From Inquilinus sp. (GTDB lineage Bacteria; Pseudomonadota; Alphaproteobacteria; DSM-16000; Inquilinaceae): a stretch of DNA of 24,000 nucleotides. Below the pieces are notes generated by a model. It was given only the letters and a program-made list of their open reading frames with translations, was not told the DNA's origin and made no database searches. A program made the position numbers and the translations under genes. The stretch covers positions 20,589 through 44,588 of the forward strand of contig NZ_JBCNNF010000006.1 of NCBI RefSeq assembly GCF_039594555.1, given 5' to 3'. Positions 2,579-23,418 of the stretch are shown piece by piece (the stretch's first letter is position 1; each line of letters begins with the position of its first letter).

Positions 2579-2607
2579 CTAGGGTCGGCGCGGGGTCTGG
2601 CGGCGCG

Positions 2608-2737
2608 AACCCCCTCCCCCTGCCCCCCTCCCGCGAGGGGAGGGGGGACTCGATTGCATTGGCTGAGAGATCTCTCTCCAACCGTCAAAACCCTTGTCCC
2701 CCCTCCCCTCGCGGGAGGGGGCTAGGGGGAGGGGGTT
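2608..2737. repeat. Family A composite, R-spB-F architecture (arm R1 2608-2649, spacer 2650-2695, arm F1 2696-2737)
   Basis: R1 is AACCCCCTCCCCCTGCCCCCCTCCCGCGAGGGGAGGGGGGAC. F1 is GTCCCCCCTCCCCTCGCGGGAGGGGGCTAGGGGGAGGGGGTT. The two 42-nt arms are reverse complements of each other. The spacer contains the perfect palindrome GAGAGATCTCTC (2665-2676). The element lies between the potF stop and the potG start. Confidence 0.95.
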
Positions 2738-2763
2738 GTCGATGCCACGCACCGTCTTTGCCC

Positions 2764-5160: not shown

Positions 5161-5200
5161 GGCCTTCTTCCTGGTCCTGACTGCCGCCAGCTCCCCTTTT

Positions 5201-5290
5201 TGTCATTGCCGGGCTTGACCCGGCAATCCAGGGGCGGCCAGAGCCGCTCTCCGTGGCCCCTGGATCCTCGGGTCAAGCCCGAGGATGACA
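5201..5290. repeat. Family B composite palindromic repeat, copy 2 (opposite orientation to copy 1)
   Basis: Sequence: TGTCATTGCCGGGCTTGACCCGGCAATCCAGGGGC ... GCCCCTGGATCCTCGGGTCAAGCCCGAGGATGACA. Module hairpins are at 5205-5227 and 5264-5286. It lies between the TetR stop (5303) and the ACAD start (5160). Confidence 0.9.
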
Positions 5291-5302
5291 GTAAAGGAAG
5301 GG

Positions 5303-6165: not shown

Positions 6166-7509
6166 ATGACCCGCAGCCTGGCGCGCAGCAACGCGCAGTT
6201 CCGTCGGGCGTCGACCCGCCTGCCGCTCGGCGTCGCCTCCAACTTCCGCTACTGGGGCGACGACCGGACCATCTATGTGAAGCGCGGCCGCGGCGGCCGG
6301 ATCTGGGACCTCGACGACAACCCCTATGTCGACTATCGCCTCGGCTACGGCCCGGCGATCCTGGGCTATGCCGACCCGCGGGTGGACGAGGCGGCGCGGC
6401 AGGGCATGGAGGTCGGCGGCGTCTTCGCCCTGTCGACCGAGCGCGAATTCACCGTGGCCGAGCGCATCGCCAAGATGATGCCGGCGGCGGAGCTGGTGCG
6501 CTTCTCCAACTCCGGCACCGAGGCGGTGATGGCGGCGCTGCGCCTGGCCCGCGCCCACACCGGCAAGGAATCCTATGTGCTGGTCGAGGGCAGCTATCAC
6601 GGGCTGTTCGACGCGGCGATGTGGATGGTGGCGCTGGACCAGTGGGACCCGCAGAGGACCGACCAGGACCCGGCCGTTGTGCCCTATTCCAAGGGCGTGC
6701 CGGAGGCGGTGCGGCCCTTGGTGCATCTGACGCCGATGAACGACGCCGACCGGCTGGAGGACCTGCTGCGCCGCCGCTCGCACGAGATCGCGGCGATGCT
6801 GATCGAGCCGATCATGGGCAATTGCTGCGGCATCACCGCCGACGTCGCCTATGTCCGCGCCGTGCGCGAGCTGTGCCACCGCTACGGCGTGCTGCTGATC
6901 ATCGACGAGGTGAAGTCCGGCTTCCGCGTCGCCCGCGGCGGCACGCAGGGGCTGATCGGCGTGAAGGCCGACATCACCACCATGGCCAAGGCGATGGCCA
7001 ACGGCTATCCGATCGCGGCGATCGGCGGGCGCGAGGACATCATGCGCCGCTACGGCCGCGGCGTCGCCCATGGCGGCACCTACACCGCCCATTCCGTGGC
7101 GCTGGCCGCGGCCGAGAAGACGCTGCAGATCCTGGACGAGACCCCGGCGCTGGAGACCATTGCCGCCTATGGCCGGCGGATGCAGGCCGGAATTAAGAGG
7201 ATCCTGGATGCTCGCGGCGTGGTCCATTGCTTCGCCGGCCACCCGTCGATGGGCGGGCTGTTCTTCGCCCCGGCGCCGCCGCGCGACTACCGCGACTGGA
7301 AGCGCTCCGACTACAGCTTCTACGACGCGCTGGCGCGCGAGCTGCATGAGGAGGGCGTGCTGTGCGAGCCGGATTCGCGCGAGCCCTGGTTCGTCTGCGA
7401 GGCGCATGACGACAGCTGCCTCGCCGACACGCTGGCCGGGTTCGAGCGCGCCGTCGACCGCACCCTGGACAAGGGCGGCGACGCCGCCAAGCGAGCCGTG
7501 GCACACTGA
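6166..7509 (+). CDS. Class-III (omega / glutamate-1-semialdehyde aminomutase-like) PLP-dependent aminotransferase
   Basis: 447 aa. SNSGTEAVMAALRLARAHTGK, DEVKSGFRV (PLP lysine), GGTYTAHSVALAAA. AAGGA lies 9 nt upstream of the ATG. Confidence 0.9.
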   Translation: MTRSLARSNAQFRRASTRLPLGVASNFRYWGDDRTIYVKRGRGGRIWDLDDNPYVDYRLGYGPAILGYADPRVDEAARQGMEVGGVFALSTEREFTVAERIAKMMPAAELVRFSNSGTEAVMAALRLARAHTGKESYVLVEGSYHGLFDAAMWMVALDQWDPQRTDQDPAVVPYSKGVPEAVRPLVHLTPMNDADRLEDLLRRRSHEIAAMLIEPIMGNCCGITADVAYVRAVRELCHRYGVLLIIDEVKSGFRVARGGTQGLIGVKADITTMAKAMANGYPIAAIGGREDIMRRYGRGVAHGGTYTAHSVALAAAEKTLQILDETPALETIAAYGRRMQAGIKRILDARGVVHCFAGHPSMGGLFFAPAPPRDYRDWKRSDYSFYDALARELHEEGVLCEPDSREPWFVCEAHDDSCLADTLAGFERAVDRTLDKGGDAAKRAVAH

Positions 7510-7568
7510 GCGGCAGACCGGGCGGAGGCACGGCCCATGGGGGGAAGCAAGCGAGGCAACCCATCCTC

Positions 7569-7705
7569 GTCCCCCCTCCCCTCGCGGGAGGGGGCTAGGG
7601 GGAGGGGGTTGCCGATCGGAGGGGACAGGGCCTCTATCAGCTTGGCCCGGCGCATGCGGCGCGAACCCCCTCCCCCTACCCCCCTCCCGCAAGGGGAGGG
7701 GGGAC
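7569..7705. repeat. Family A composite, F-spA-R architecture (arm F2 7569-7610, spacer 7611-7663, arm R2 7664-7705)
   Basis: Both arms are 42 nt and near-identical to the other family A arms. The spacer shares GCCGnnCGGAG...AGCTTGGC with the spacer at 18981-19023. Confidence 0.95.
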
Positions 7706-7751
7706 TCAGAAAGAGAAGCCGTTCCTACTCCACCGTCTCCGGCTTCAACCC

Positions 7752-9371
7752 ATGAAGACCTGGGACGTCATCGTCGTCGGGGCCGGGCACAACGGCCTGG
7801 TGGCGGCGGGCTACCTGGCCCGGGCCGGGCTTGAGGTGCTGGTGGTGGAGAAGAACGACTGGGTCGGCGGCGCGGCCGTCAGCCGGTCGCTGCATCCCGG
7901 CATCCTCTATTCCAACTGCTCCTATGTCTGCAGCCTGCTGCGGCCGGAGATCATGCGCGACCTGGAGCTGCCGCGGCACGGGCTGCAGGTCATCCCCTAT
8001 GAGGGCGGCGCCGTGTTCACCCGCGACGGCGACGCGCTGGCGACCTATCGCCAGCACGACGCCCACCGGCGCGAGATCCAGCGCTTCTCGCTGCGCGACG
8101 CCGAGGCCTATGACCGCTACTCGGCCGACGTCACCCGGCAATGCCGCTTCATCCGGCCGCTGCTGCTGCGCACGCCGCCGGACCCGGCGTCGCTGCGGCC
8201 GCGCGATTTGCAGGAGATGCTGTATCTCGGCCGCAGGTTCCACGGCCTGACTGAGACCGAGATGGCCGACACCATCCGGTTCTGGACCATGAGCATCGCC
8301 GAGTTTCTGGACGAGTATTTCGAGAGCGAGGTGGTGAAGGCCGGCTTCGCCCTGTCCGGCATCATCGGCACCGCGCTCGGCCCGTGCTCGCCCGGCTCGG
8401 CCTATGTGCTGCTGCACCACTACATGGGCGATGTCGACGGCGCCACCGGGGCCTGGGGCTTCGCCCGCGGCGGCATGGGCGCCATCACCCAGGCCATGGC
8501 CGGGTCGCTGCGGGCGGCGAAGGGCGAGATCCGCACCGGCGCCGCGGTCGAGCGCATCCTGGTCGAGAACGGCAGGGCCGCCGGGGTGGTGCTGGCGGGC
8601 GGCGAGGAGATCCGCGCCCGGCAGGTCGTCTCCAACCTCGACGTCAAGCGCACCTTCCTGACCTTGCTGGAAGAGCGGGAGCTGCCGGCGCCCTTCGTCA
8701 AGCGCGTCCGCGCCTTCAAGATCCGCGGCTCCTCCGGCAAGGTGAACATCGCGCTGGACGCCCTGCCCCGCTTCCCGGCCCTGCCGGAGGGGTCGCCCTG
8801 CCTGCGCGGCGACATTCACTTCACCGACAGCGTCGAGCGAATGGAGCGCGGCTATGACGACTGGAAGGCCGGGCGATGGTCGGCCGACCCGTTCCTGGAC
8901 ATGATGATCCCGACCACGCTGGACCCGACCATGGCGCCGCCGGGGAAGCACTTCATGAGCTGCTTCGTCCAGTACTGCCCGCCCAGGGTCGAGGGCCGCG
9001 ACTGGACCGATGCCGACCGCGACGCCTTCGGCCAGACCGTGATCGACCAGATCGCCGACTATTCGCCCGGCTTCCGCGACCTGATCCTGCATGCCGAGAT
9101 CCGCACCCCGCGCGAACTGGAGGCCGAGGTCGGCCTGACCGAGGGCAACATCTTCCAGGGCGAGCTGACCTTCGACCAGATCCTGTTCAACCGGCCGGTG
9201 CCCGGCTACGCCCAGTACCGATCGCCGGTGGCGGGGCTGTACATGTGCGGCTCTTCCACCCATCCGGGCGGCGGGGTGATGGGGGCGCCGGGCCGCAACG
9301 CGGCGGCGGAGGTCCTGCGCGACCTGAAGCGCCGGCCCGCGGTGATGAGCGACGCCTATGACGTCCTTTGA
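7752..9371 (+). CDS. NAD(P)/FAD-dependent oxidoreductase, phytoene desaturase (CrtI)/amine-oxidase fold, paralog 1
   Basis: 539 aa. N-terminal dinucleotide fold DVIVVGAGHNGLVAAGYLARAGLEVLVVEKNDWVGG. C-terminal GLYMCGSSTHPGGGVMGAPGRNAA. Confidence 0.88.
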   Translation: MKTWDVIVVGAGHNGLVAAGYLARAGLEVLVVEKNDWVGGAAVSRSLHPGILYSNCSYVCSLLRPEIMRDLELPRHGLQVIPYEGGAVFTRDGDALATYRQHDAHRREIQRFSLRDAEAYDRYSADVTRQCRFIRPLLLRTPPDPASLRPRDLQEMLYLGRRFHGLTETEMADTIRFWTMSIAEFLDEYFESEVVKAGFALSGIIGTALGPCSPGSAYVLLHHYMGDVDGATGAWGFARGGMGAITQAMAGSLRAAKGEIRTGAAVERILVENGRAAGVVLAGGEEIRARQVVSNLDVKRTFLTLLEERELPAPFVKRVRAFKIRGSSGKVNIALDALPRFPALPEGSPCLRGDIHFTDSVERMERGYDDWKAGRWSADPFLDMMIPTTLDPTMAPPGKHFMSCFVQYCPPRVEGRDWTDADRDAFGQTVIDQIADYSPGFRDLILHAEIRTPRELEAEVGLTEGNIFQGELTFDQILFNRPVPGYAQYRSPVAGLYMCGSSTHPGGGVMGAPGRNAAAEVLRDLKRRPAVMSDAYDVL

Positions 9372-10914
9372 CGCCATCGTCATCGGCGGCGGCCATAACG
9401 GCCTGGTCTGCGCCGCGCTGCTGGCCAGGAAGGGCCGCAAGGTGGTGCTGCTGGAGGCGGCCGGGGAGGTCGGCGGCGCCGCCCGGACGGTGGAGTTCGC
9501 ACCGGGCTTCCGCGTCTCCCATGTCGCGCATGTGCTGAACCAGCTGCATCCGGAGGTGATCAAGGCACTGGACCTGAAGCGGCACGGCCTGGCGCTGGCG
9601 GCGAGCACCATCCCGACCACGGCACTGGCGGCGGACGGCCGGCACCTGACGCTGCACGGCGCCTTCGGCGAGCGGCTCGCGGGCAGGCTGCCGGCCGGCG
9701 AGCCCGAGGCCTGGGCCGCGCTGCGCGCCCGGCTGCTGCGCTTCGCCGGCGCGCTGCAGCCGTTCCTGACCCAGGTGCCGCCCCGGCTGCGCGGCGGCGG
9801 GCGCGGCGACGCGCTGGCGCTGGGCAAGCTCGGCTGGGCGATCCGCCGGCTGGGCCGCGAGGAGATGCGCGAATTCCTGCGCATGATCCTGATGGACGTG
9901 GCCGACGTGCTGGAGGAGGAGCTGTCGGATCCACGGCTGATGGGCACCGTCGCCTTCGATGCGGTGCTGGGCACCCATCTCGGCCCCCGCTCCCCGACCT
10001 CGCTGCTGGCGCTGCTGCACCGGCTGGCCGGGCAGGCGGACGGCGTGCCGGCGGCGCTGGCCCTGCCCAGGGGCGGCATGGGCACGATCGCCGCCGCCAT
10101 CGCCGCCGCGGCCCGGGCCGCAGGCGTCGAGATCCGCACCGATGCGCCGGTGGCGAAGATCCTGGTCGAGGAGGACCGCGCCGTCGGCGTCATTTCGGCG
10201 GAGGGGGCGGAGATCCGGGCCCCGGTCGTCGTCTCCGGCGCCAATCCGCGCACCACGTTTCTCGACCTGCTCGGCCCGCGGGCGCTCGATGCCGGCTTCG
10301 TCCGCCGCATCGGCCATGTCCGCATGCGCGGCAACGCCGCCAAGCTGCACCTGGCGCTGGACGGGCTGCCGGAGGGGCTGGACCCGACGCTGCTGGCCGG
10401 GCGGCTGGTGGTGGCGCCGGGCATCGACGCGGTCGAGGCCGCGTTCAATCCCGCGAAATACGGCGAGGCCTCGCCCGAGCCGGTGCTGGAGGCGGTGATC
10501 CCGTCCCTGACCGACCCGGCGCTGGCCCCGGCCGGCAAGCATGTCATGTCGATCGTCGCACAATACGCCCCGGCCGGGCTGCAGGGCGGCTGGGAGGCCG
10601 GCGGCCCCGCCTTCCGCGACCGCATCCTGGCCGTGCTGGAGCGGCACCTGCCCGGCCTGTCGGCGCGGGTGCTGGCGGCGGAGCTGCTGACCCCGGCCGA
10701 CCTGGAGGCCCGCTACCGCATACCCGGCGGCCATTGGCACCATGGCGAGTTGGCGGTCGACCAGCTGATGATGCTGCGCCCGGTGCATGGCGCCGGCCAG
10801 TACGCGACGCCGGTGCCGGGCCTGTATCTCTGCGGCGCCGGCAGCCATCCCGGCGGCGGGGTGATGGGCGCCGCCGGCCTGAACGCCGCGCGCCGGATCC
10901 TGGCGGGAGGGTGA
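9358..10914 (+). CDS. NAD(P)/FAD-dependent oxidoreductase, CrtI/amine-oxidase fold, paralog 2
   Basis: 518 aa. DAIVIGGGHNGLVCAALLARKGRKVVLLEAAGEVGG and C-terminal GLYLCGAGSHPGGGVMGAAGLNAA. Its start overlaps the upstream paralog by 14 nt. Confidence 0.88.
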   Translation: MTSFDAIVIGGGHNGLVCAALLARKGRKVVLLEAAGEVGGAARTVEFAPGFRVSHVAHVLNQLHPEVIKALDLKRHGLALAASTIPTTALAADGRHLTLHGAFGERLAGRLPAGEPEAWAALRARLLRFAGALQPFLTQVPPRLRGGGRGDALALGKLGWAIRRLGREEMREFLRMILMDVADVLEEELSDPRLMGTVAFDAVLGTHLGPRSPTSLLALLHRLAGQADGVPAALALPRGGMGTIAAAIAAAARAAGVEIRTDAPVAKILVEEDRAVGVISAEGAEIRAPVVVSGANPRTTFLDLLGPRALDAGFVRRIGHVRMRGNAAKLHLALDGLPEGLDPTLLAGRLVVAPGIDAVEAAFNPAKYGEASPEPVLEAVIPSLTDPALAPAGKHVMSIVAQYAPAGLQGGWEAGGPAFRDRILAVLERHLPGLSARVLAAELLTPADLEARYRIPGGHWHHGELAVDQLMMLRPVHGAGQYATPVPGLYLCGAGSHPGGGVMGAAGLNAARRILAGG

Positions 10915-10960
10915 GATGGGTGAGATGAGGGCCTTTGCCAAACGCGCGCCCTTGCTCTTT

Positions 10961-11004
10961 GAGTCCCCCCTCCCCCTGCGGGAGGGGGGTAGGGGGAGGG
11001 GGTT
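10961..11004. repeat. Family A single arm F3 (core 10963-11004)
   Basis: GAGTCCCCCCTCCCCCTGCGGGAGGGGGGTAGGGGGAGGGGGTT, located 22 bp from the DUF559 stop codon. Confidence 0.95.
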
Positions 11005-11026
11005 CTCGACGCACGAGCCAGCCCCA

Positions 11027-11368
11027 CTAGGTCTCACTTTCCCGGGTCAGCACGGCCGCGATCGTCTGCACGACACCGGCAAGCTCACTCATGACCTGCT
11101 CGTTGGAGAAGCGCACGACGCGGAAGCCCTGGTTTTCCAGCCAGCGCGTTCTCCGGGCGTCGGCGTCAAAGGTCAGCTCATGCGACGGCCCATCGATCTC
11201 GATCACCAAATGCTCCGAGAGGCAGACGAAATCCACGATGTAAGGGCCGAGACGGTATTGGCGCCGGAAACGGAGGCCGCCGACACGCTTGTCTCGCAAC
11301 TGGTGCCACAGCAGCAGCTCGGCTTCGGTCTGGTTCTGCCGCAGGAACTGAACACGTGGATCGGCCAT
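11027..11368 (-). CDS. DUF559 endonuclease-domain protein (Vsr-like, PD-(D/E)xK superfamily)
   Basis: ORF 11027..11461 trimmed to the ATG at 11368; the first 31 codons of the long ORF are only a translation of repeat arm R4. MADPRVQFLRQNQTEAELLLWHQLRDKRVGGLRFRRQYRLGPYIVDFVCLSEHLVIEIDGPSHE...RWLENQGFRVVRFSNEQV is the typical DUF559 pattern. GAGG lies about 10 nt upstream. Hand count gives 213/342 = 62% G+C. Confidence 0.85.
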   Translation of the reverse strand: MADPRVQFLRQNQTEAELLLWHQLRDKRVGGLRFRRQYRLGPYIVDFVCLSEHLVIEIDGPSHELTFDADARRTRWLENQGFRVVRFSNEQVMSELAGVVQTIAAVLTRESET

Positions 11369-11385
11369 CGGCCTGCTGCCTCGAA

Positions 11386-11517
11386 AACCCCCTCCCCCTA
11401 CCCCCCTCCCGCGAGGGGAGGGGGGACTGGAGCGGTGCAGGTTGAAGGAATGCTCTCCCAACCCGAACAGACAGAGTCCCCCCTCCCCTCGCGGGAGGGG
11501 GCCAGGGGGAGGGGGTT
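11386..11517. repeat. Family A composite, R-spB-F architecture (arm R4 11386-11427, spacer 11428-11475, arm F4 11476-11517)
   Basis: Both arms are 42 nt. The spacer resembles the spacer at 2650-2695 (TGCA..G..TGA..G.AT..CTCTCC(C)AACC(C)G.....AC). R4 starts 17 bp upstream of the DUF559 ATG. F4 ends 31 bp before the GcvT-like start. Confidence 0.95.
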
Positions 11518-11548
11518 CTCACCGCTGGGCAGGGACGGGGCCTGAGCC

Positions 11549-12757
11549 ATGCGACGCCCCCTGCCCCGCGACCATTTCCGCCGCCCACTGCTGCAGACGC
11601 CGTTCCACCCGCGCCTGGCGGCGCTGATGCAGGCCGAGGACTGGTATAATTGGGGCGGCTATGTCTCCGCCCGCACCCTCCGGGACGCCGAGCAGGAATA
11701 CTTCGCCATCCGCAACGCCGCGTCGCTGTTCGACCTGACGCCGATGGTGAAGTACCGCATCGCCGGGCCGGAGGCCGAGGCGTTCCTGGACCGGCTGACC
11801 GTGCGCGACGTCTCGAAGCTCGCCGTCGGCCGGGTGCACTACACCTGCTGGTGCGACGACGAGGGCCATGTGCTGGATGACGGCACGCTGTTCCGCCTGG
11901 GCGCCGCCGAGTTCCGGCTGTGCTGCCAGGAGCGGCACCTGAACTGGCTCCTGGACTCCGCCATCGGTTTCGAAGTCGAGGTCGCCGAGGAGACCGAGCA
12001 GGTGGCCGCCCTGGCGCTGCAGGGCCCGACCAGCCGGGCGCTGCTGACCCGCGCCGGCTTCGACGGCATCGAGACGCTGAAGCCCTTCCAGATCCGCGAC
12101 TTTCACCTGGATGAGGGCCGGGTCACCGTGTCCCGCACCGGCTTCGCCGGCGACCTGGGCTACGAGCTGTTCGCCGAGCCTGAGGCGGCGCTGCCGCTGT
12201 GGGACCGGCTGTGGGCGGCCGGCCCCTGGCACGGGCTGCAGGCGATCGGCTTCGCGGCGCTGGACCTGGCGCGGCTGGAGGCCGGCTTCATCATCGCCAA
12301 CAGCGACTTCGTCACCGCCGAGACCGCGATCCGCGTCGACCGCCGCCGCACGCCGGACGAGATCGGCCTGGGCTGGCTGGTGGACGAGAAGAAGGCCGCC
12401 TACTGGACCGGCAAGCGCGCCATCCTGGCCCAGCGCCGCGACCGGTCGGCCCGCTGGTGCCTGGTCGGGCTGGACATCGACGGCAATGTCCCGGCCGACC
12501 ATGCCATCGTCTACCACAAGGGCAAGGTTGAGGCCGGGCAGATCACCGCCGCCGCCTGGTCGCCCTCGGCCAAGCGCAACATCGCCCTGGCCTCGCTGCG
12601 CCGGCCCTATGGCGACACGGTGAAGGAGGATCTCTGGGTCGAGATCTACGCCCTGCGCGAGCTGGTCTACCACAAGCTGATGGTACGGGCCCGGGTGGTG
12701 GACCGGCCCTTCTACGACCCGCCGCGGCGCCGGGCCACGCCGCCGGCCGAGGTCTGA
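11549..12757 (+). CDS. Aminomethyltransferase (GcvT) family, folate-binding protein, stand-alone
   Basis: 402 aa. FDLTPMVKYRIAGPEAEAFLDRL, YTCWCDDEGHVLDDGTLFRL, VSRTGFAGDLGYELF, LDLARLEAG. Confidence 0.88.
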   Translation: MRRPLPRDHFRRPLLQTPFHPRLAALMQAEDWYNWGGYVSARTLRDAEQEYFAIRNAASLFDLTPMVKYRIAGPEAEAFLDRLTVRDVSKLAVGRVHYTCWCDDEGHVLDDGTLFRLGAAEFRLCCQERHLNWLLDSAIGFEVEVAEETEQVAALALQGPTSRALLTRAGFDGIETLKPFQIRDFHLDEGRVTVSRTGFAGDLGYELFAEPEAALPLWDRLWAAGPWHGLQAIGFAALDLARLEAGFIIANSDFVTAETAIRVDRRRTPDEIGLGWLVDEKKAAYWTGKRAILAQRRDRSARWCLVGLDIDGNVPADHAIVYHKGKVEAGQITAAAWSPSAKRNIALASLRRPYGDTVKEDLWVEIYALRELVYHKLMVRARVVDRPFYDPPRRRATPPAEV

Positions 12758-15850: not shown

Positions 15851-15892
15851 CCGAACATCCCTCTTCCCCCGAACATACAGTGGTGTACTGTA
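15851..15892. promoter_or_regulatory. Candidate regulatory motifs upstream of soxB
   Basis: Direct repeat CCGAACAT (15851-15858 and 15869-15876) and inverted repeat TACAGT-N5-ACTGTA (15876-15892), in a lower-GC gap 50-90 nt upstream of the soxB ATG. Confidence 0.25.
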
Positions 15893-15942
15893 CCGGCAGG
15901 ATCGGGAGGTGCCGGGCCAATCCGGCGGAGGCGGGCGCGAGG

Positions 15943-17202
15943 ATGCAGCGTTATTCCTTCTTCTCGCTGGCGCGGAAGGCGCTGGGCGGCCATCGCGGCT
16001 GGGAGCCGGCGTGGCGCAAAGCGACGCCGAAGAAAAGCTACGACGTCGTCATCGTCGGCGGCGGCGGGCACGGCCTGTCCACCGCCTACTACCTGGCCCG
16101 CAACCACGGCATCACCAATGTCGCGCTGATCGAGCGCGGCTGGATCGGCGGCGGCAATGTCGGCCGCAACACCACCATCGTCCGCTCCAACTACCTGCTG
16201 CCGGACAACCAGCATTTCTACGAATGGTCGCTCAAGCTGTGGCACGGCCTCAGCGAGGAGCTGAACTACAACGTCATGTTCTCGGCCCGCAGCTCGATCT
16301 TCCTGGCGACGTCGGTGGGCAACGCCATGGCGCTGCGCCGGCGCGGCAACGGCATGCGCCTGGCCGGCATCGATGCCGAGTGGCTGGAGCTGGACGATCT
16401 GCGCCGGATGGCGCCGAACCTCGACTATTCCGACAACGCGCTGTTCCCGATCTATGGCGGCATGCGCCAGGGCCGCGCCGGCACCGCCCGGCACGACGCC
16501 GTGGCCTGGGGCTTCGCCCGCGGCGCCAGCAACCTCGGCGTCGACATCATCGAGGATTGCGAGGTGCTGGACTTCCTGCGCGACGGCGAGCGCGTGACCG
16601 GGGTGATGACGGCCAAGGGCCCGATCAGCGCCGACCGGGTGTGCCTGGCCACCGCCGGCTCCTCCTCCACCCTCACCCGCAAGCTCGGCCTCAAGCTGCC
16701 GATCGAGAGCCACCTGCTGCAGGCCTTCGTCAGCGAGGGGCTGAAGCCGGTGGTCGATCACGTCTTCTCCTGGGGCGGCAGCGGCCATTTCTACATCAGC
16801 CAGTCCGACAAGGGCGGGCTGGTCTTCGGCGGCGACCTGGACGGCTACAACTCCTACGCCCAGCGCGGCAACCTGCCGGTGGTGGAGGACATCGCCACCG
16901 CCGCCATCGCCCTGATGCCCAACCTGTCGCGCACCCGCATCCTGCGGCACTGGGCCGGGGTGATGGACATGTCGATGGACGGCAGCCCGATCATCGGCCT
17001 GGCGCCGATCGACGGGCTCTACCTCAACATGGGCTGGTGCTATGGCGGCTTCAAAGCCATCCCCGGCTCCGGCTGGGTCTGCGCCCACACCATCGCCCAT
17101 GGCGCGCCGCACGAGCTGAACCGGCCCTTCGCGCTCGACCGGTTCGAGCGCGGCCGGATCATCGACGAGAACGGCGTCGGGCCGATCGCGAACCGGCACT
17201 GA
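15943..17202 (+). CDS. soxB: Sarcosine oxidase subunit beta
   Basis: ORF 15880..17202 trimmed to the ATG at 15943 (MQRYSFFSLARKALGGHRGWEPAWRKATPKKSYDVVIVGGGGHGLSTAYYLA is the canonical SoxB N-terminus). Also NTTIVRSNY and GWCYGGFKA. Confidence 0.95.
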   Translation: MQRYSFFSLARKALGGHRGWEPAWRKATPKKSYDVVIVGGGGHGLSTAYYLARNHGITNVALIERGWIGGGNVGRNTTIVRSNYLLPDNQHFYEWSLKLWHGLSEELNYNVMFSARSSIFLATSVGNAMALRRRGNGMRLAGIDAEWLELDDLRRMAPNLDYSDNALFPIYGGMRQGRAGTARHDAVAWGFARGASNLGVDIIEDCEVLDFLRDGERVTGVMTAKGPISADRVCLATAGSSSTLTRKLGLKLPIESHLLQAFVSEGLKPVVDHVFSWGGSGHFYISQSDKGGLVFGGDLDGYNSYAQRGNLPVVEDIATAAIALMPNLSRTRILRHWAGVMDMSMDGSPIIGLAPIDGLYLNMGWCYGGFKAIPGSGWVCAHTIAHGAPHELNRPFALDRFERGRIIDENGVGPIANRH

Positions 17203-17214
17203 GGAGCGGACGAC

Positions 17215-17490
17215 ATGCGAATTCCCTGCCCCTGGTGCGGCCCGCGCGACCTGTCCGAGTTCTTCTATGGCGGCGACGCCGAGACGCCGCGCCCGGCGCA
17301 TGAGGAGACGGCAGTCGGCCCCTGGTTCGACCATGTCTACCGCCACGACAATCCGCGCGGATCGCACCAGGAGTACTGGCAGCACAATTACGGCTGCCGG
17401 TCCTGGATCCTGGTCACGCGCGACACGCTGACCCATGAGATCACGGCGGCCGAGCCGATGCGGCGTCCCGCTTCGGAGGGTGGACGATGA
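17215..17490 (+). CDS. soxD: Sarcosine oxidase subunit delta
   Basis: 91 aa. MRIPCPWCGPRDLSEFFYGGDA...YWQHNYGCRSW. Positioned between soxB and soxA. Confidence 0.93.
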   Translation: MRIPCPWCGPRDLSEFFYGGDAETPRPAHEETAVGPWFDHVYRHDNPRGSHQEYWQHNYGCRSWILVTRDTLTHEITAAEPMRRPASEGGR

Positions 17491-20400
17491 CCTCCCATCG
17501 CCTGGCCCAGGGCGGGCTGATCGACCGGTCGGCGCGGCTGGGCTTCACCTTCGACGGGCAGCGCTACGAGGGCCATCCCGGCGACACGCTGGCCTCGGCC
17601 CTGCTGGCGAACGGCGTGCGGCTGGTCGGCCGCAGCTTCAAGTACCACCGGCCGCGCGGCATCCTGTCCGCCGGGTCGGAGGAGCCGAACGCCCTGGTCG
17701 AGCTGCGGACCGGCGGCCGGCACGAGCCGAACACCCGCGCCACCATGGTCGAGCTGTATGACGGGCTGGCGGCCAACAGCCAGAACCGCTGGCCGTCGCT
17801 CAGCTTCGACGCGCTGGGCGTGGTCAACGGCCTGCTGGCCCCGGTCTTCCCGGCCGGCTTCTACTACAAGACCTTCATGTGGCCGGCCTCGTTCTGGGAG
17901 CCGGTCTATGAGCGGATCATCCGCCGCGCCGCCGGCCTGGGCACCGCGCCGACTGAGGCCGACCCCGACCGCTACGAGCGCCGCCATGCCTTCTGCGACG
18001 TTCTGGTGGTCGGCGGCGGCCCGGCGGGGCTGAGTGCTGCGCTGGCCGCGGCCGAGGCCGGCGCACGGGTGATCCTGTGCGACGAGGGCGACCGCTTCGG
18101 CGGCAGCCTGCTGGGCGAGGACGAGCCGGTCGAGAGCCGTCCGGCGACGGAATGGGTGGCCGACCGGCTGGCGGCACTGCAGGGCTTCGGCGACCGGGTG
18201 ACGCTGGTGCCGCGCGGCATGGCCTTCGGGGTCTACGACCACGGCACGGTCGGCTTGGTCGAGCGCGTTGCCGACCACCTTCCCGAGCCGCCGCCGCACC
18301 TGCCGCGCCAGCGCTTCTGGACCATCCGGGCCGCAGCGATCGTGGTCGCGGCCGGGGCGATCGAGCAGCCGCTGGTGTTCCCGAACAACGACCGCCCCGG
18401 CGTGATGCTGGCCGGCGCGGCGCATCGCTACGCCCATCGCTATGCCGTGGCCCCGGGCAAGCGGGTGCTGGTGGCCGGGATCGACGACGGCGCCGCCCGC
18501 GCCGCCCTGGCGCTGAAGCGGCACGGGGTCGAGGTCGCCGGGCTGGTCGACAGCCGGGCCGCCCTGCCCGGCCCCCTGGCGGAGGCGCTGCGCGCCGCCG
18601 GCATCGCGGTCCATGCCGGCTCCGCCCTTCGCGGCGCCAGGGGCCGCCTCGGCGTCGAGGGCGCCCGCATCGGCGCGGCCGACGGCAGCGGCAGAGCCAT
18701 CGCGATCGATTGCGACGCCATCGCCATGTCCGGCGGCTGGATGCCGACCACGCATCTCTTGAGCCAGCGCGGCATCCGCCCGAAGCTGGACTGGACCCGC
18801 GGCGGCTATGTGCTGCCGGATCTCGACGGCCCGCTGCTGGCCGCCGGCGCCTGCGCCGGCCGCGCCACCACCGAGGCCGCGATCGCCGACGGCCTGGCGG
18901 TGGGACGGCAGGCTGCCCAATTCCGGCAAATTATGAGAGTCCCCCCTCCCCTCGCGGGAGGGGGCAAGGGGGAGGGGGTTGGTGCCGCCGGAGCAGAATC
19001 CGCGGGTTTGAGCTTGGCTTCGACACCCCCCTCCCCCTCCCCCTCCCCCTACCCCCCTCCCGCAGGGGGAGGGGGGACTCCATTGGAGAACCTGCCCCGC
19101 CCTGCTCCCATACCTGCCACAGCCCCCGCGGTCACCGACCCGCAGGTGGCCGGCAAGGCTTTCGTCGACTTCCAGAACGACGTCACCGCCGCCGATGTGC
19201 GTCTGGCCGCGCGCGAGGGCTACACCTCGCCCGAGCATATGAAGCGCTACACCACCCAAGGCATGGCGACGGACCAGGGCAAGACCTCGAACGGCCCGGC
19301 CCTGGGCGTGCTGACCGATGCCCGCGGGCTGCGGCCGGGCGACCTGGCGGCGCCGACCTTCCGTCCGCCCTACACCCCGGTCGCCTTCGGCGCGATCGCC
19401 GGCCGGTCGGTCGGCTGGCACGCCGTCCCCAGCCGGCGGACGCCGTTCGACGAGTTCCACCGGGCCGACGGCGCCGTCTTCGTGCGGTCCGGCGGCTGGA
19501 TGCGGCCGCTCTACTACCCGCGTCCGGGAGAGACGCTGGGCCAGGCATCGCTGCGCGAGGCCCGGCATGTCCGGTCGCAGGTCGGCGTGTTCGACGTCTC
19601 GACCCTGGGCAAGGTCGACGTCTGCGGCCCCGACGCCGCTTCGTTCCTGGAGCGGCTCTATGTCAACCGGATCGAGACGCTGCCGGTCGGCCGCTCACGC
19701 TACGGCATCATGCTGCGCGACGACGGCATCGTGATGGATGACGGTACCGTGACCCGGCTGGCCGAGGACCGCTTCTACGTCACCACCACCAGCGCCAAGG
19801 CGCATGACGTGGTGCGGATGATGGAGCGGCTGACCGAGGTCGACTGGCCCGATCTTCGGGTGGCGGTGACGGAGGTGACGGAGGCCCGCGCGGCGCTGGC
19901 GCTGACCGGCCCCGAGGCCCGCACGGTGCTGGCCCGGCTGGTCGGCGACGCCGCCGACGTCTCGAACGAGGCCCTGCCCTTCATGGCGGTCCGCGACGTG
20001 AGGCTGGGCGGCCTGCCGCTGCGCATCCTGCGCGTCAGCTTCACCGGCGAGCTGGGCTACGAGCTGCATGTCGAATCCCAGCACGCGCCGGAGCTGTGGC
20101 GGCGCCTGATCGCGGCCGGCGAGCCGGCCGGGCTGCGGCGCTTCGGGCTGGAGGCGCTGGAGCTGCTGCGGATCGAGAAGGGCTTCCTGACCGGCGCCGA
20201 GATCAACGGCCAGACCACCCTGGCCGACCTGGCGCATGAGCGCTTCGCCAAGCGCGAGGGCAACTACGTCGGCAAGCCGATGTCGCTGCGCGAGGGCATG
20301 GCCGACCCGGACCGGCCGCGGCTGGTCGGGCTGGTGTCGGAGGATGGCGCGCCGCTGGTTTCCGGGGCCCATCTGGTCGAGGGCGGCATGTACCGCCCGA

Positions 20401-20603
20401 ACGAGCCGACCCAGGGCCATGTCACCTCCAGCGGCACCAGCCCGGTGACGGGGCTGCCGATCGCGCTGGGCCTGCTGGCCCGCGCACGGGAGCGGACCGG
20501 CGGCACTATCTTCGCCACCGACCCGCTGCGCGGCAGCCACATCAAGGTGCGGGTGGTCGAGCCCTGCATGTACGACCCGAAGGGAGAGCGCGTCCGTGGC
20601 TGA
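17487..20603 (+). CDS. soxA: Sarcosine oxidase subunit alpha, carrying an in-frame family A repeat insertion
   Basis: 1038 aa. ATGA overlap with soxD. FKYHRPRGILSAGSEEPNALVEL, VLVVGGGPAGLSAALAAA, KAFVDFQNDVTAADV, YTTQGMATDQGK, and a C-terminal GcvT-like SFTGELGYELH. Residues of about 485-531 (VPPPLAGGGKGEGV...PPSPSPSPYPPPAGGGGT) are a translation of the repeat. Confidence 0.93.
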   Translation: MTSHRLAQGGLIDRSARLGFTFDGQRYEGHPGDTLASALLANGVRLVGRSFKYHRPRGILSAGSEEPNALVELRTGGRHEPNTRATMVELYDGLAANSQNRWPSLSFDALGVVNGLLAPVFPAGFYYKTFMWPASFWEPVYERIIRRAAGLGTAPTEADPDRYERRHAFCDVLVVGGGPAGLSAALAAAEAGARVILCDEGDRFGGSLLGEDEPVESRPATEWVADRLAALQGFGDRVTLVPRGMAFGVYDHGTVGLVERVADHLPEPPPHLPRQRFWTIRAAAIVVAAGAIEQPLVFPNNDRPGVMLAGAAHRYAHRYAVAPGKRVLVAGIDDGAARAALALKRHGVEVAGLVDSRAALPGPLAEALRAAGIAVHAGSALRGARGRLGVEGARIGAADGSGRAIAIDCDAIAMSGGWMPTTHLLSQRGIRPKLDWTRGGYVLPDLDGPLLAAGACAGRATTEAAIADGLAVGRQAAQFRQIMRVPPPLAGGGKGEGVGAAGAESAGLSLASTPPSPSPSPYPPPAGGGGTPLENLPRPAPIPATAPAVTDPQVAGKAFVDFQNDVTAADVRLAAREGYTSPEHMKRYTTQGMATDQGKTSNGPALGVLTDARGLRPGDLAAPTFRPPYTPVAFGAIAGRSVGWHAVPSRRTPFDEFHRADGAVFVRSGGWMRPLYYPRPGETLGQASLREARHVRSQVGVFDVSTLGKVDVCGPDAASFLERLYVNRIETLPVGRSRYGIMLRDDGIVMDDGTVTRLAEDRFYVTTTSAKAHDVVRMMERLTEVDWPDLRVAVTEVTEARAALALTGPEARTVLARLVGDAADVSNEALPFMAVRDVRLGGLPLRILRVSFTGELGYELHVESQHAPELWRRLIAAGEPAGLRRFGLEALELLRIEKGFLTGAEINGQTTLADLAHERFAKREGNYVGKPMSLREGMADPDRPRLVGLVSEDGAPLVSGAHLVEGGMYRPNEPTQGHVTSSGTSPVTGLPIALGLLARARERTGGTIFATDPLRGSHIKVRVVEPCMYDPKGERVRG
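18939..19078. repeat. Family A composite, F-spA-R architecture, inside soxA (arm F5 18939-18980, spacer 18981-19023, arm R5 19024-19078)
   Basis: F5 is GTCCCCCCTCCCCTCGCGGGAGGGGGCAAGGGGGAGGGGGTT. R5 is 13 nt longer than the other R arms because its CCCCCT tract is expanded (19026-19050). Confidence 0.95.
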
Positions 20604-21210
20604 GCTCCTGGTGAATCCCGTCGCGGCGCTGACGACCCTGGACGCCGACGGCCTGACCTTCCGCCCGTGGTGCCCCGCCGCGATCCTGCAGCTGGCCGCC
20701 TGGAGCGAGGACTCCGCCGCCGCTTTGGCGCAATGGGAGCGCGCCACCTTCGGCGCCTCGATCGCCGGGGCCGGCGCGACGCTGGCGCGGGACGGGGTGC
20801 GGCTGTGGCCGACCGCGCCCTGGCGCCGGCTGCTGATCGCCGAGGCCGGCACCACCCTGCCGGCTCTGCCGGCCGATGTCGCGGCGGTGCCCAGCACCGG
20901 CGGCTATGTCGGCCTCAGACTGGATGGCCCGCGCTCGCGCGACCTGCTGGCCAAGCTGGCGGCGATCGACCTGCATCCGGACATGCTGGTGGAGGGCGAC
21001 TTCGCCACCGCGAAGCTGGAGCATGTGCGGGTGCATCTGCAGCGCGCCGGGGCCGACGCCTTCGACCTGCTGCTGCCGGTCTCTTACGCCGAATTCACCC
21101 TCGGCGCCCTGGCTGACGCCGCGCTGGAATACGGCGCCCGGATCGACCCGGCCGTGCTGCACCGCCCGCCCCCGCCCCAGGAATCGCCCCGACTGGTGCG
21201 GCTGAAGTAG
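20596..21210 (+). CDS. soxG: Sarcosine oxidase subunit gamma
   Basis: 204 aa. GTG start overlapping the soxA stop by 8 nt. Size and position match soxG, and the GYVGLRLDGPRSRDLLAKL block is typical. Confidence 0.85.
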   Translation: MAELLVNPVAALTTLDADGLTFRPWCPAAILQLAAWSEDSAAALAQWERATFGASIAGAGATLARDGVRLWPTAPWRRLLIAEAGTTLPALPADVAAVPSTGGYVGLRLDGPRSRDLLAKLAAIDLHPDMLVEGDFATAKLEHVRVHLQRAGADAFDLLLPVSYAEFTLGALADAALEYGARIDPAVLHRPPPPQESPRLVRLK

Positions 21211-22350: not shown

Positions 22351-23418
22351 GTGTCCGTCCTGCACGCGTCCCGAGCCGCCCTTCTCGCCATCGCCCTTGC
22401 CGCAACCCCTGCCCAGGCCGCGTCCGACGTTGTCCGCGAGGAGCTGAGGGCCACCACCGCGGACGGCATCGGCATCCGGGTCCGCGAGGTGCGGCCGCGC
22501 GACGGCGGCGCCGGTGAGCCGATCATCCTGGTGCATGGCGCCCGGGTGCCGGGGATCGCCTCCTTCGACCTCGAGGTTCCGGGCGGGTCGCTGGCCGCCG
22601 ACCTGGCCGACCGGCTGGACCGCGCCGTCTACGTCATGGATGCGAGGGGCTATGGCGGCTCCGACCGCTCGGCGGCGATGGACCGGCCGGCGGCCGAGAG
22701 CCTGCCGCTGGCTCGCGGCCATGAGGTGGTGCGCGACATCGACGCCGTGGCTCGGCTGGCCGCGGCGCGCGCCGGCACCGGCACCGTCGCCCTGGTCGGC
22801 TGGGCCACCGGCGGCATGTGGTCGGCCTGGTATGCCGCGCTGTGGCCGGAGCGGGTCGGCCATCTGGTCGTACTGAACGCGCTCTATGGCGGCGCCGACC
22901 GGCATCCGACCCTCGGCCCCGGCTCGCCCGCCGCCGATCCGGCCCGTCCGGACCGGCTGAACCCGACGATCGGCGGCTACACGCTGAACACCGCGGCGGC
23001 GCTGTTCCCATCCTGGGACCGGAGCATCCCGGCCGACGACAAGACGCTGTGGCGCGACCCGGCCGTCGCCGACGCCTATGCCCGGGCGGCGCTGGCCAGC
23101 GACCCGGCCGCGGAGACCCGCGATCCCCCGGCCTTCCGCGCCCCGTCCGGCGCCATCGCGGACAGCTTCCTGCAGGCGGGCGGGCGCCGGCTGTTCGACG
23201 CCGGGTCGATCACCGCCCCGGTGCTGCTGATCCGGTCCGAGCATGATTTCTGGAGCCGGACGGAGGACATGGCCGCCTTCGCCCATGACGCGGTGCGGTC
23301 GGCCGGGGTGCGCAGCATCACCCTGCCCGGCGCCACCCACTACACGCATCTCGACTGGCCGGAGCGTGGGCGCGACGCGCTGATCGCCGAGATTGTGACC
23401 TTCCTGGGCGGGCGCTAG
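22351..23418 (+). CDS. Secreted alpha/beta-hydrolase-fold protein (atypical nucleophile elbow)
   Basis: The ORF track starts at a TTG at 22291. GTG at 22351 is preferred: GGAGGA lies 4 nt upstream, and the N-terminus VSVLHASRAALLAIALAATPAQA/AS reads as a signal peptide. IILVHGARVPG (HG motif), VALVGWATGGMW (elbow), PVLLIRSEHDFW, PGATHYTHLD. Confidence 0.75.
   Translation: MSVLHASRAALLAIALAATPAQAASDVVREELRATTADGIGIRVREVRPRDGGAGEPIILVHGARVPGIASFDLEVPGGSLAADLADRLDRAVYVMDARGYGGSDRSAAMDRPAAESLPLARGHEVVRDIDAVARLAAARAGTGTVALVGWATGGMWSAWYAALWPERVGHLVVLNALYGGADRHPTLGPGSPAADPARPDRLNPTIGGYTLNTAAALFPSWDRSIPADDKTLWRDPAVADAYARAALASDPAAETRDPPAFRAPSGAIADSFLQAGGRRLFDAGSITAPVLLIRSEHDFWSRTEDMAAFAHDAVRSAGVRSITLPGATHYTHLDWPERGRDALIAEIVTFLGGR

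Follow-up and report, generated by a model that had tools for sequence, protein, structure and literature searches.

We analysed a stretch of 24,000 nucleotides of DNA from Inquilinus sp. (contig NZ_JBCNNF010000006.1 of assembly GCF_039594555.1, positions 20,589 to 44,588 of the forward strand; hereafter the window) and found that soxA, a gene of the sarcosine oxidase alpha subunit family, carries in its reading frame a complete copy of a dispersed palindromic repeat that we term family A. The segment is an insertion and is absent from orthologues of the gene. Our reading, to which we assign a probability of roughly 0.85, is that a selfish insertion was tolerated at this place and is translated as a disordered linker loop, and that it is old, polymorphic and has been shuffled by recombination. 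A tolerated selfish insertion, rather than an adaptation, is the most economical reading of the data; within it, the mechanism of mobility, the neutrality of the loop and the expression of the protein are the parts that we infer.

The complete composite of an F arm, a spacer and an R arm occupies 18937..19080 on the plus strand (144 nt, equal to 48 codons), and both its coordinates and its sequence agree with an earlier sequence-only reading of this DNA. One and the same 44-nt unit stands at both ends, in opposite orientation. The F arm (GAGTCCCCCCTCCCCTCGCGGGAGGGGGCAAGGGGGAGGGGGTT; 18937..18980, plus strand) is read as (R)VPPPLAGGGKGEGV and the R arm (CCCCCTCCCCCTACCCCCCTCCCGCAGGGGGAGGGGGGACTC; 19039..19080, plus strand) as PSPYPPPAGGGGT, and the arms are inverted around a spacer of 58 nt (18981..19038, plus strand). 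This spacer includes a lineage-specific expansion of CCCCCT units, detected as a Tandem Repeats Finder array at 19027-19061, which adds the residues PSPS. Each arm carries a 9-bp stem (CCCCCTCCC / GGGAGGGGG), and the G+C content of the element is ~71%. Over 65 nt, the segment 18937-19001 is 77% complementary to 19016-19080, and the R arm is 100% complementary to a solo F arm found elsewhere in the window (10961-11002). The 140-bp core proposed earlier (18939-19078) and its 144-bp extended form (18937-19080) stand, but the palindrome proved to be slightly longer: the predicted mRNA or single-stranded DNA hairpin runs in full from 18933 to 19083 (plus strand), 3-4 bp past the core. For the RNA, the prediction is a single long hairpin with a folding energy of -118.2 kcal/mol over 171 nt (z = -6.3 versus shuffles). 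Rfam returned no matching family for the element and only sub-threshold matches to eukaryotic miRNA hairpins, i.e., generic hairpin noise. Terminator-like and promoter-like sites were looked for at the element, and none were found.

To establish how often the arm occurs, we searched the window with a 40-nt arm pattern, allowing at most three mismatches, and used 100 dinucleotide-preserving shuffles as control. The pattern matched nine times in the window and not once in the shuffles. Besides the soxA copy, the 44-nt unit is found at positions 2600, 2692, 7565, 7656, 10959, 11378 and 11472. Family A copies were also detected at other Inquilinus loci by blastn-short, and a DNA scan of metagenome contigs yielded 38 loci with exact family A arms, nearly all of them of 69-73% G+C. 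The element is thus a dispersed repeat that is present outside genes as well.

The host of the insertion is an uninterrupted open reading frame (ORF) of 1038 residues at 17487..20603 (plus strand), in line with the sequence-only reading. It matches TIGR01372 over its full length with 1217 bits, above the curated cut-off of 1164, and the match is split around the insert. The soxB, soxD and soxG genes are adjacent, forming a soxBDAG operon. SoxA contains the Pfam domains Fer2_4, Pyr_redox_2, SO_alpha_A3, GCV_T and GCV_T_C, and its closest solved structures are 2gag_A and 1vrq_A. The translated composite corresponds to R484-T531 (codon-exact span 18936-19079), and residues 485-531 read VPPPLAGGGKGEGVGAAGAESAGLSLASTPPSPSPSPYPPPAGGGGT, exactly the ~47 added residues quoted before. 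This peptide is rich in Pro, Gly and Ala and contains two PPP motifs. PPP motifs are stalling sites of translation that depend on elongation factor P (EF-P).

With respect to the protein, the insert lies in a hypervariable interdomain linker of SoxA (residues 478-556, encoded by 18918..19154 on the plus strand), located between a helix (residues 462-482) and the A3 domain. It maps between residues 455 and 482 of 2gag_A and to the same place in 1vrq_A. The earlier placement between the flavin/NAD-type and the folate-binding regions is borne out. We used an AlphaFold model obtained from an alignment of 91 sequences, which has a mean predicted local distance difference test score (pLDDT) of 83 and finds its top structural matches in 1vrq_A and 2gag_A. 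A further model, obtained from a 16-sequence alignment, was discarded at a mean pLDDT of 52. In the model used, residues 483-549 form the sole long stretch of low confidence (pLDDT 24-43) and show no secondary structure. As judged from this predicted model, the site is compatible with a loop or linker, and the inserted peptide of ~47 residues is probably a disordered surface loop. A literature search aimed at the SoxA linker in the crystal-structure papers gave nothing usable.

Evidence for an insertion comes from alleles of the same gene in close relatives. The closest SoxA proteins, at 82-91% identity, are all from Inquilinus (I. limosus, I. ginsengisoli and Inquilinus spp.), and their lengths fall into classes. 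Four of the 12 closest orthologues carry family A at the same site, five are empty, one retains a 32-nt remnant and two carry family B, a different palindromic element (GCCTCTCCCGCTTGCGGGAGAGGTCGG...CCGACCTCTCCCGCCACGCGGGAGAGGC) with an architecture similar to that of family A. The DNA of the alleles was compared for 11 of these 12 orthologues, and the remaining one (P0006, family A as judged from its protein) was compared at the protein level only. Measured between the conserved motifs AGACAGR and FVDFQNDV, the site comprises 195 nt in the empty alleles (L081, L083, L089, L090 and L091, with 186 nt in L083) and 336, 336 and 333 nt in the family A alleles L082, L088 and L086, respectively. The family A allele of the window measures 342 nt, the remnant allele (L085) 240 nt and the family B alleles (L084 and L087) 357 nt. 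The remnant, GAGTCCCCCCTCCCGCAGGGGGAGGGGGGACT, corresponds exactly to what would be left if the arms had recombined at their CCCCCCTCCC direct repeats and the intervening DNA had been deleted, with 99 nt of the element gone. Compared to the orthologous copies, the window has 12 additional nt (two extra CCCCCT units), 15 nt less in the left flank and 9 nt more in the right flank, and its net gain over the empty allele is 147 nt versus 141 nt in the relatives.

The same holds at greater evolutionary distance. In the alignment of 91 SoxA sequences, the linker measures 24-40 residues in the 83 sequences without the element, and equally so in all 79 more distant SoxA, whereas it has 45 residues in the remnant allele and reaches 76-84 residues solely in seven element-bearing Inquilinus proteins. 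Among the matches listed, 80 genomic relatives from other genera (at most 50% identity) have genes of 2.9-3.0 kb, encoding ~970-1005 residues. Five Inquilinus alleles and all distant SoxA thus present the empty site, and aligning the orthologues brought up no comparable segment, as the sequence-only reading had anticipated.

How the filled and empty alleles came to be distributed can be read in part from their sequences. The four soxA copies of family A have a common spacer (GTTGGTGCCGCC...GAGC..GGCTTCGACA) and common flanking bases, which the intergenic copies do not have, and because of this shared material they would descend from one insertion. The presence and absence of the element disagree with the gene tree, as each of four soxA clades holds different states. 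Over soxA, the identity between L083 (empty) and L084 (family B) is 99-100% and drops to 75-84% only within ~450 nt at the site (soxA alignment columns about 1200-1650). Moreover, the soxA genes of the window and of L088 are mosaics that group with different clades upstream and downstream of the site. The allele states have been shuffled among lineages by homologous recombination around the site, which explains their patchy presence across clades. For the window gene, we also recorded that the 5′ half is nearest to one clade (90.5-92.2% identity) and the 3′ half to another (about 92%).

All differences in length at the site are multiples of three (+141, +138, +147, +45, +162 and -9 nt). Pairwise comparison of the A-bearing alleles shows 91-95% identity at the first and second codon positions, compared to 78-84% at the third. 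In the frame of soxA, the F arm reads GGC-NAG-GGG, where the consensus N is T and would create a TAG stop. Most arms of the window and 21 of the 39 metagenomic arms have this T, whereas the soxA copies show A, C, G and G at the base and thereby encode Lys, Gln, Glu and Glu, respectively; in the window gene, it is position 18966 that is A (codon AAG), in place of the T of many family A copies. In five independent element-bearing assemblies, the ORF is unbroken. Judging from the frame-preserving indels, the codon-position bias and the avoidance of TAG, purifying selection appears to act on the insert-bearing soxA.

We also asked how the element itself varies and aligned the four soxA copies of family A to count variable columns, comparing the arms to each other region by Fisher's test. 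In the arms, 8/86 columns are variable, compared to 21/46 in the spacer (p = 4e-6), 565/2814 in the whole soxA gene (p = 0.013) and 325/938 at third codon positions (p = 2e-7). Only one of the eight changes in the arms falls on a third position. Drift in the spacer is approximately neutral, whereas the arms keep their nucleotide sequence, either by gene conversion from other copies or by constraint on the hairpin or the sequence. As the arms of intergenic copies are equally uniform, this conservation looks like a property of the family.

Further hosts of the element were sought by a pattern scan of metagenome contig DNA combined with an ORF and Pfam screen. With the element-encoded peptide as query, no candidate protein sharing words was obtained, and an exhaustive HMMER search with the same peptide against 1.84 billion representatives gave 0 matches; the low-complexity composition probably defeats such peptide searches. 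Ten long ORFs spanned metagenomic copies, of which seven were dropped as spurious high-G+C frames lacking a Pfam match. L125 was also rejected, as the element sits upstream of the real aminotransferase domain. The second host is a 2-oxoacid dehydrogenase E2 acyltransferase (L116, 888-2264, plus strand), identical to an NCBI Inquilinus protein, in which a family A composite of 159 nt (L116 1167-1325) is inserted in frame between the lipoyl and the E3-binding domains. Among its Inquilinus orthologues, 13/16 have family A at this linker site and 3/16 a B-like peptide (AGEVGLAERDRVR...), while outgroups have neither. The B-like peptide matches the family B peptide of soxA with E = 2e-8, and the E2 DNA was confirmed in L130 (10001-11383). 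The soxA and E2 copies have the same orientation and the same F-arm reading frame. Thus, the earlier statement that the repeat is otherwise strictly intergenic is correct for the window (2600-2743, 7565-7707 and 10959-11523) but does not extend to the genus. The string SDGASGRG that follows the R arm in E2 alleles might be a vestige of the right hairpin of family B, an idea not borne out by the one DNA copy compared (L130), which matches only weakly. A TMEM260-like membrane protein on a contig of 58% G+C (L122, 4805-6790, minus strand) may be a third host; its stretch between hydrophobic segments (approximately residues 405-470) contains two in-frame tandem units of ~87 nt (RPLPLAPSREGRGD..LPPPVA..).

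The families A and B are alike in architecture, each being built of an outer hairpin, a long inner stem and an outer hairpin, with a similar start of the inner stem. They alternate at one point in three loci, i.e., soxA, the E2 linker and the spacer between the aminotransferase and amine oxidase genes. For this spacer we compared the window (7509-7752) with L089 (300-353), L085 (2337-2592), L088 (978-1236), L091 (661-919) and L081 (2292-2709). It is empty in L089, with a length of 25 nt, and contains a B unit of ~205 nt flanked by a CCCATG direct repeat in L085, L088 and L091. In L081 an A composite is nested in the centre of B, and in the window A is present with the B flanks reduced to vestiges. 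Judging from this series, A may preferentially insert into B and replace it afterwards; for soxA, we would at most infer the same course.

From these data we propose the following scenario. A non-autonomous, G+C-rich palindromic repeat of family A would have entered the DNA for the variable linker of SoxA, at a point between the N-terminal flavin/NAD-type half and the A3/folate-binding half, in one insertion event in an ancestor of several Inquilinus lineages. Each of its arms would form a small hairpin of its own plus one half of the longer inner stem, an architecture resembling a dimer of repetitive extragenic palindromes (REPs) or a miniature inverted-repeat transposable element (MITE). The gene would have stayed intact because the length of the element is a multiple of three and the landing frame was open. 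Selection on soxA would then filter all changes in the element, which is presumably translated as a Pro/Gly/Ala-rich loop of ~47 residues, permitting only frame-preserving indels and no in-frame TAG. Meanwhile, the spacer would drift near-neutrally and the arms would stay near the family consensus via gene conversion or hairpin constraint. Homologous recombination would finally shuffle A, B, remnant and empty alleles between lineages.

Several points weigh against this scenario. Low pLDDT is a mere proxy for disorder in what is a predicted model, and sequence signs alone speak for the production and activity of the longer SoxA. A single origin with subsequent recombination is deduced from the shared spacers, and a target-site duplication could not be defined at the soxA site, where the flanks are too diverged. 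Neither a REP-associated tyrosine transposase (RAYT) nor a parent insertion sequence was identified, with no whole Inquilinus genome having been scanned; the genes called in the fetched loci include no Y1 transposase, and no genome-wide transposase search was made. The occurrence of A and B at the same point in three loci may indicate that the site or the element is targeted. Finally, a purely neutral passenger would not predict the strong conservation of the arms in coding DNA, which needs conversion or structural selection.

The shared insertion points lead to an alternative in which the soxA linker, or the element resident in it, is a preferred target, such that A copies and B copies are independent insertions. 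Besides the three loci at which A and B alternate, the A composite nested in the middle of B in L081 fits such a hot spot, and REPs are documented as targets of other mobile elements (PMC1525189). Still, we consider this alternative unlikely. The spacer and flanks common to the four soxA copies of family A, and foreign to the intergenic ones, indicate one A event, and the recombination tracts around the site are directly visible. As regards B versus A at soxA, it is plausible that A first nested in B and that B was lost later.

Another alternative regards the element, or its RNA or DNA hairpin, as exapted. It might lengthen the flexible connection between the two halves of SoxA, act as a structured RNA within the gene or as a PPP-rich translational pause that aids the folding of single domains or assembly, or offer a binding site to a host factor. 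It overlaps with the tolerated selfish insertion as to the origin of the element. Its arguments are the conservation of the arms beyond the synonymous expectation (8/86 versus 325/938 third positions), the persistence of the insert across lineages that are ~12% apart in soxA DNA, the same orientation and F-arm frame in the linker of a second enzyme, and the very stable predicted hairpin (-118 kcal/mol, z = -6.3). On the other hand, five close alleles do without the element, one has lost 99 nt of it, and family B can take the site. The peptide encoded by the spacer drifts at a neutral rate, and the conservation of the arms is family-wide and equal in intergenic copies rather than specific to soxA. 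Nor was an Rfam family match, a terminator or a promoter found at the element. Weighing both sides, we regard an acquired function as rather improbable. In a more far-reaching idea, A and B would be a related pair that target each other and settle repeatedly in DNA for flexible interdomain linkers (SoxA, E2 and possibly the membrane protein of another taxon), with their arms under nucleotide-level selection, and would serve as reusable linker cassettes or as intragenic RNA or DNA signals (translational pauses between domains or host-factor sites) on which Inquilinus depends. This we consider a long shot.

The sequence-only reading had also named gene decay as an outcome that would undo its claim, and we examined it without finding any sign of it. 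In this case soxA would be a pseudogene in the making and its open frame an accident of G+C-rich DNA, which is stop-poor: three to four of the six frames of the element are open, and long spurious ORFs are common in the genome. The full-length TIGR01372 match above the cut-off and the intact soxBDAG operon argue against decay, as does the far greater conservation of codon positions 1 and 2 compared to position 3. At least seven length changes have occurred, every one a multiple of three, TAG is avoided at the exact in-frame base, and the filled allele is kept in five assemblies. Decay is therefore very improbable. Least credible of all is that the segment is an ancestral SoxA linker lost elsewhere or a mis-assembly through a repeat, since, for all the natural variability of this linker in length and sequence, the segment reproduces a dispersed intergenic repeat almost exactly, none of the SoxA from outside Inquilinus contains it, and its junctions recur unchanged in independent isolate genomes and metagenome assemblies.

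The remaining family A copies of the window are intergenic. An R-spacer-F pair of arms (2600..2743, plus strand) lies between the gene for an ATP-binding cassette (ABC) ATPase and that for a solute-binding protein. A composite with the F-spacer-R order seen in soxA (7565..7707, plus strand), whose F arm carries CTAG, lies between the aminotransferase and amine oxidase genes. A cluster at 10959..11523 (plus strand), made up of a solo F arm (10959-11010) and an R/F pair (11378-11523), separates the second amine oxidase gene from a GCV_T gene. Around this cluster, the window has a gap of 635 nt with family A arms (10914-11549), whereas only 1 nt separates the genes on either side in L081, and 143 nt in L085. 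An ORF of 209 residues (10916-11545) spans the gap and has no Pfam match. A third and unrelated palindromic repeat family (TGTCAT..CGGGCTTGACCCG..ATGACA) occurs in the window at 361-466 and 5191-5300, as two copies of ~100 nt each in opposite orientation, each of them a hairpin. Outside the window, L088 shows family B hairpins together with a 32-nt family A hairpin, in the form of the L085 remnant, beside the end of a DDE transposase gene (22640-23111). Exact family A arms were also seen on contigs of 58-60% G+C that are not Inquilinus-like (e.g., L095 at 8908 and 9072), and the range of the family may extend beyond Inquilinus.

In the operon, soxB (15880..17202, plus strand) was assigned by TIGR01373 (640 bits) and synteny; its real start is probably internal to the called ORF, as judged from orthologues of 419 residues. 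It is followed by soxD (17215..17490, plus strand; TIGR01374), and soxG (20596..21210, plus strand) was assigned by a partial match to TIGR01375 and synteny. On the opposite strand, an ORF of 726 residues (17388-19568, minus strand) overlaps soxA and spans the element, and probably represents a spurious high-G+C frame. Further upstream, two paralogous genes for amine-oxidase-type flavoproteins (7752-9371 and 9358-10914) are adjacent and overlapping, share direct repeats, and are followed by GCV_T and CoA-ligase-like genes. Together, these genes upstream of the sox operon look like an amine catabolic cluster.

The insertion opens a phenomenon best known from Rickettsia, on which experiments are hard to perform, to study in a culturable genus that is free-living or opportunistic. 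One enzyme offers a natural series of alleles (A, B, a 32-nt remnant and nothing), and a second enzyme shows the same pattern. This makes several questions testable: the cost or benefit of a translated selfish hairpin for assembly, activity, EF-P-dependent stalling at PPP and mRNA stability; the upkeep of repeat-arm homogeneity inside coding sequence; and the preferential survival of such elements in linkers. For annotation, low-complexity inserts of 45-55 residues in Inquilinus proteins are to be regarded as repeat-derived and not as domain features.

Among known systems, the closest precedent is that of the Rickettsia palindromic elements (RPEs), which the sequence-only reading had already invoked. 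The soxA case has the properties that define in-frame intragenic palindromic repeats, RPE-like elements and intragenic REPs included, in that it is dispersed and palindromic, lies within an ORF without introducing a stop, has a length that is a multiple of three, is absent from orthologues and falls into a loop. RPEs are in-frame palindromic elements in Rickettsia genes (Ogata et al. 2000, 2002, as relayed by PMC10969869 and PMC3733652). Both RPEs and family A are dispersed palindromes of ~150 bp that sit in unrelated metabolic genes without breaking the frame, add a translated peptide judged to be compatible with the fold, and are present in some orthologues and absent in others. In contrast to RPEs, family A has the opposite composition (~71% G+C) and is probably unrelated in sequence, the likeness being taken as a functional one only. 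By composition and host, it is very unlikely that family A is a member of the RPE sequence family. The hosts differ as well, Inquilinus being free-living or opportunistic with a large genome and Rickettsia an obligate intracellular genus with a reduced one. Furthermore, two to three coding hosts were seen for family A, compared to dozens for RPEs, and two related families alternate here.

A catalogue of intragenic REPs and REP dimers exists for many bacteria, free-living ones included (Di Nocera et al. 2013, PMC3733652). Such units contribute 20-30 residues to a protein, or 43-82 in clusters, and some REP ends give TAG stops (PMC3733652). Like them, family A consists of short hairpin units arranged as inverted dimers, here with a spacer, that are mostly intergenic and sometimes lie wholly inside ORFs. 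The 44-nt arms of family A are longer than classical REPs, however, and its (G/C)TAG is internal, between the hairpin and the second G-run, whereas the REP tetranucleotide GTAG/CGTC stands at one end. REP doublets forming hairpins (REPINs) resemble family A in combining two inverted units and a spacer in one long hairpin, and in forming sequence populations within a genome around a conserved master sequence. As differences, REPINs have mobilisation through a single-copy RAYT as their defining trait and are portrayed as extragenic (Bertels and Rainey 2011, PMC3116915).

Bacterial MITEs with ORFs and inside genes have been described, such as the enterobacterial repetitive intergenic consensus (ERIC) and others (Delihas 2007, as cited by PMC10969869). 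Family A has the size and structure of such elements, with 44-nt arms, a total of 132-170 nt and no coding capacity of its own, and shares with MITEs the build of a small non-autonomous inverted-repeat element of 70-300 bp with possible in-frame fusions. In comparison to MITEs, a flanking direct repeat (CCCATG, defined against the empty L089) is seen for the family B unit in the aminotransferase/amine oxidase spacer, while none is defined for A. Bacterial interspersed mosaic elements (BIMEs) differ in being enterobacterial and extragenic, with defined binding of host factors such as integration host factor (IHF) and gyrase (PMC2817692). Both are mosaic clusters of hairpins in alternating orientation, represented for family A by F-R and R-F pairs, solo arms and A in B. 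Taken together, the insertion in soxA is an event of a known kind, seen here with unusually clear natural alleles with and without the element, and its value lies in this allele series and in the conservation of the arms at the nucleotide level within coding sequence.

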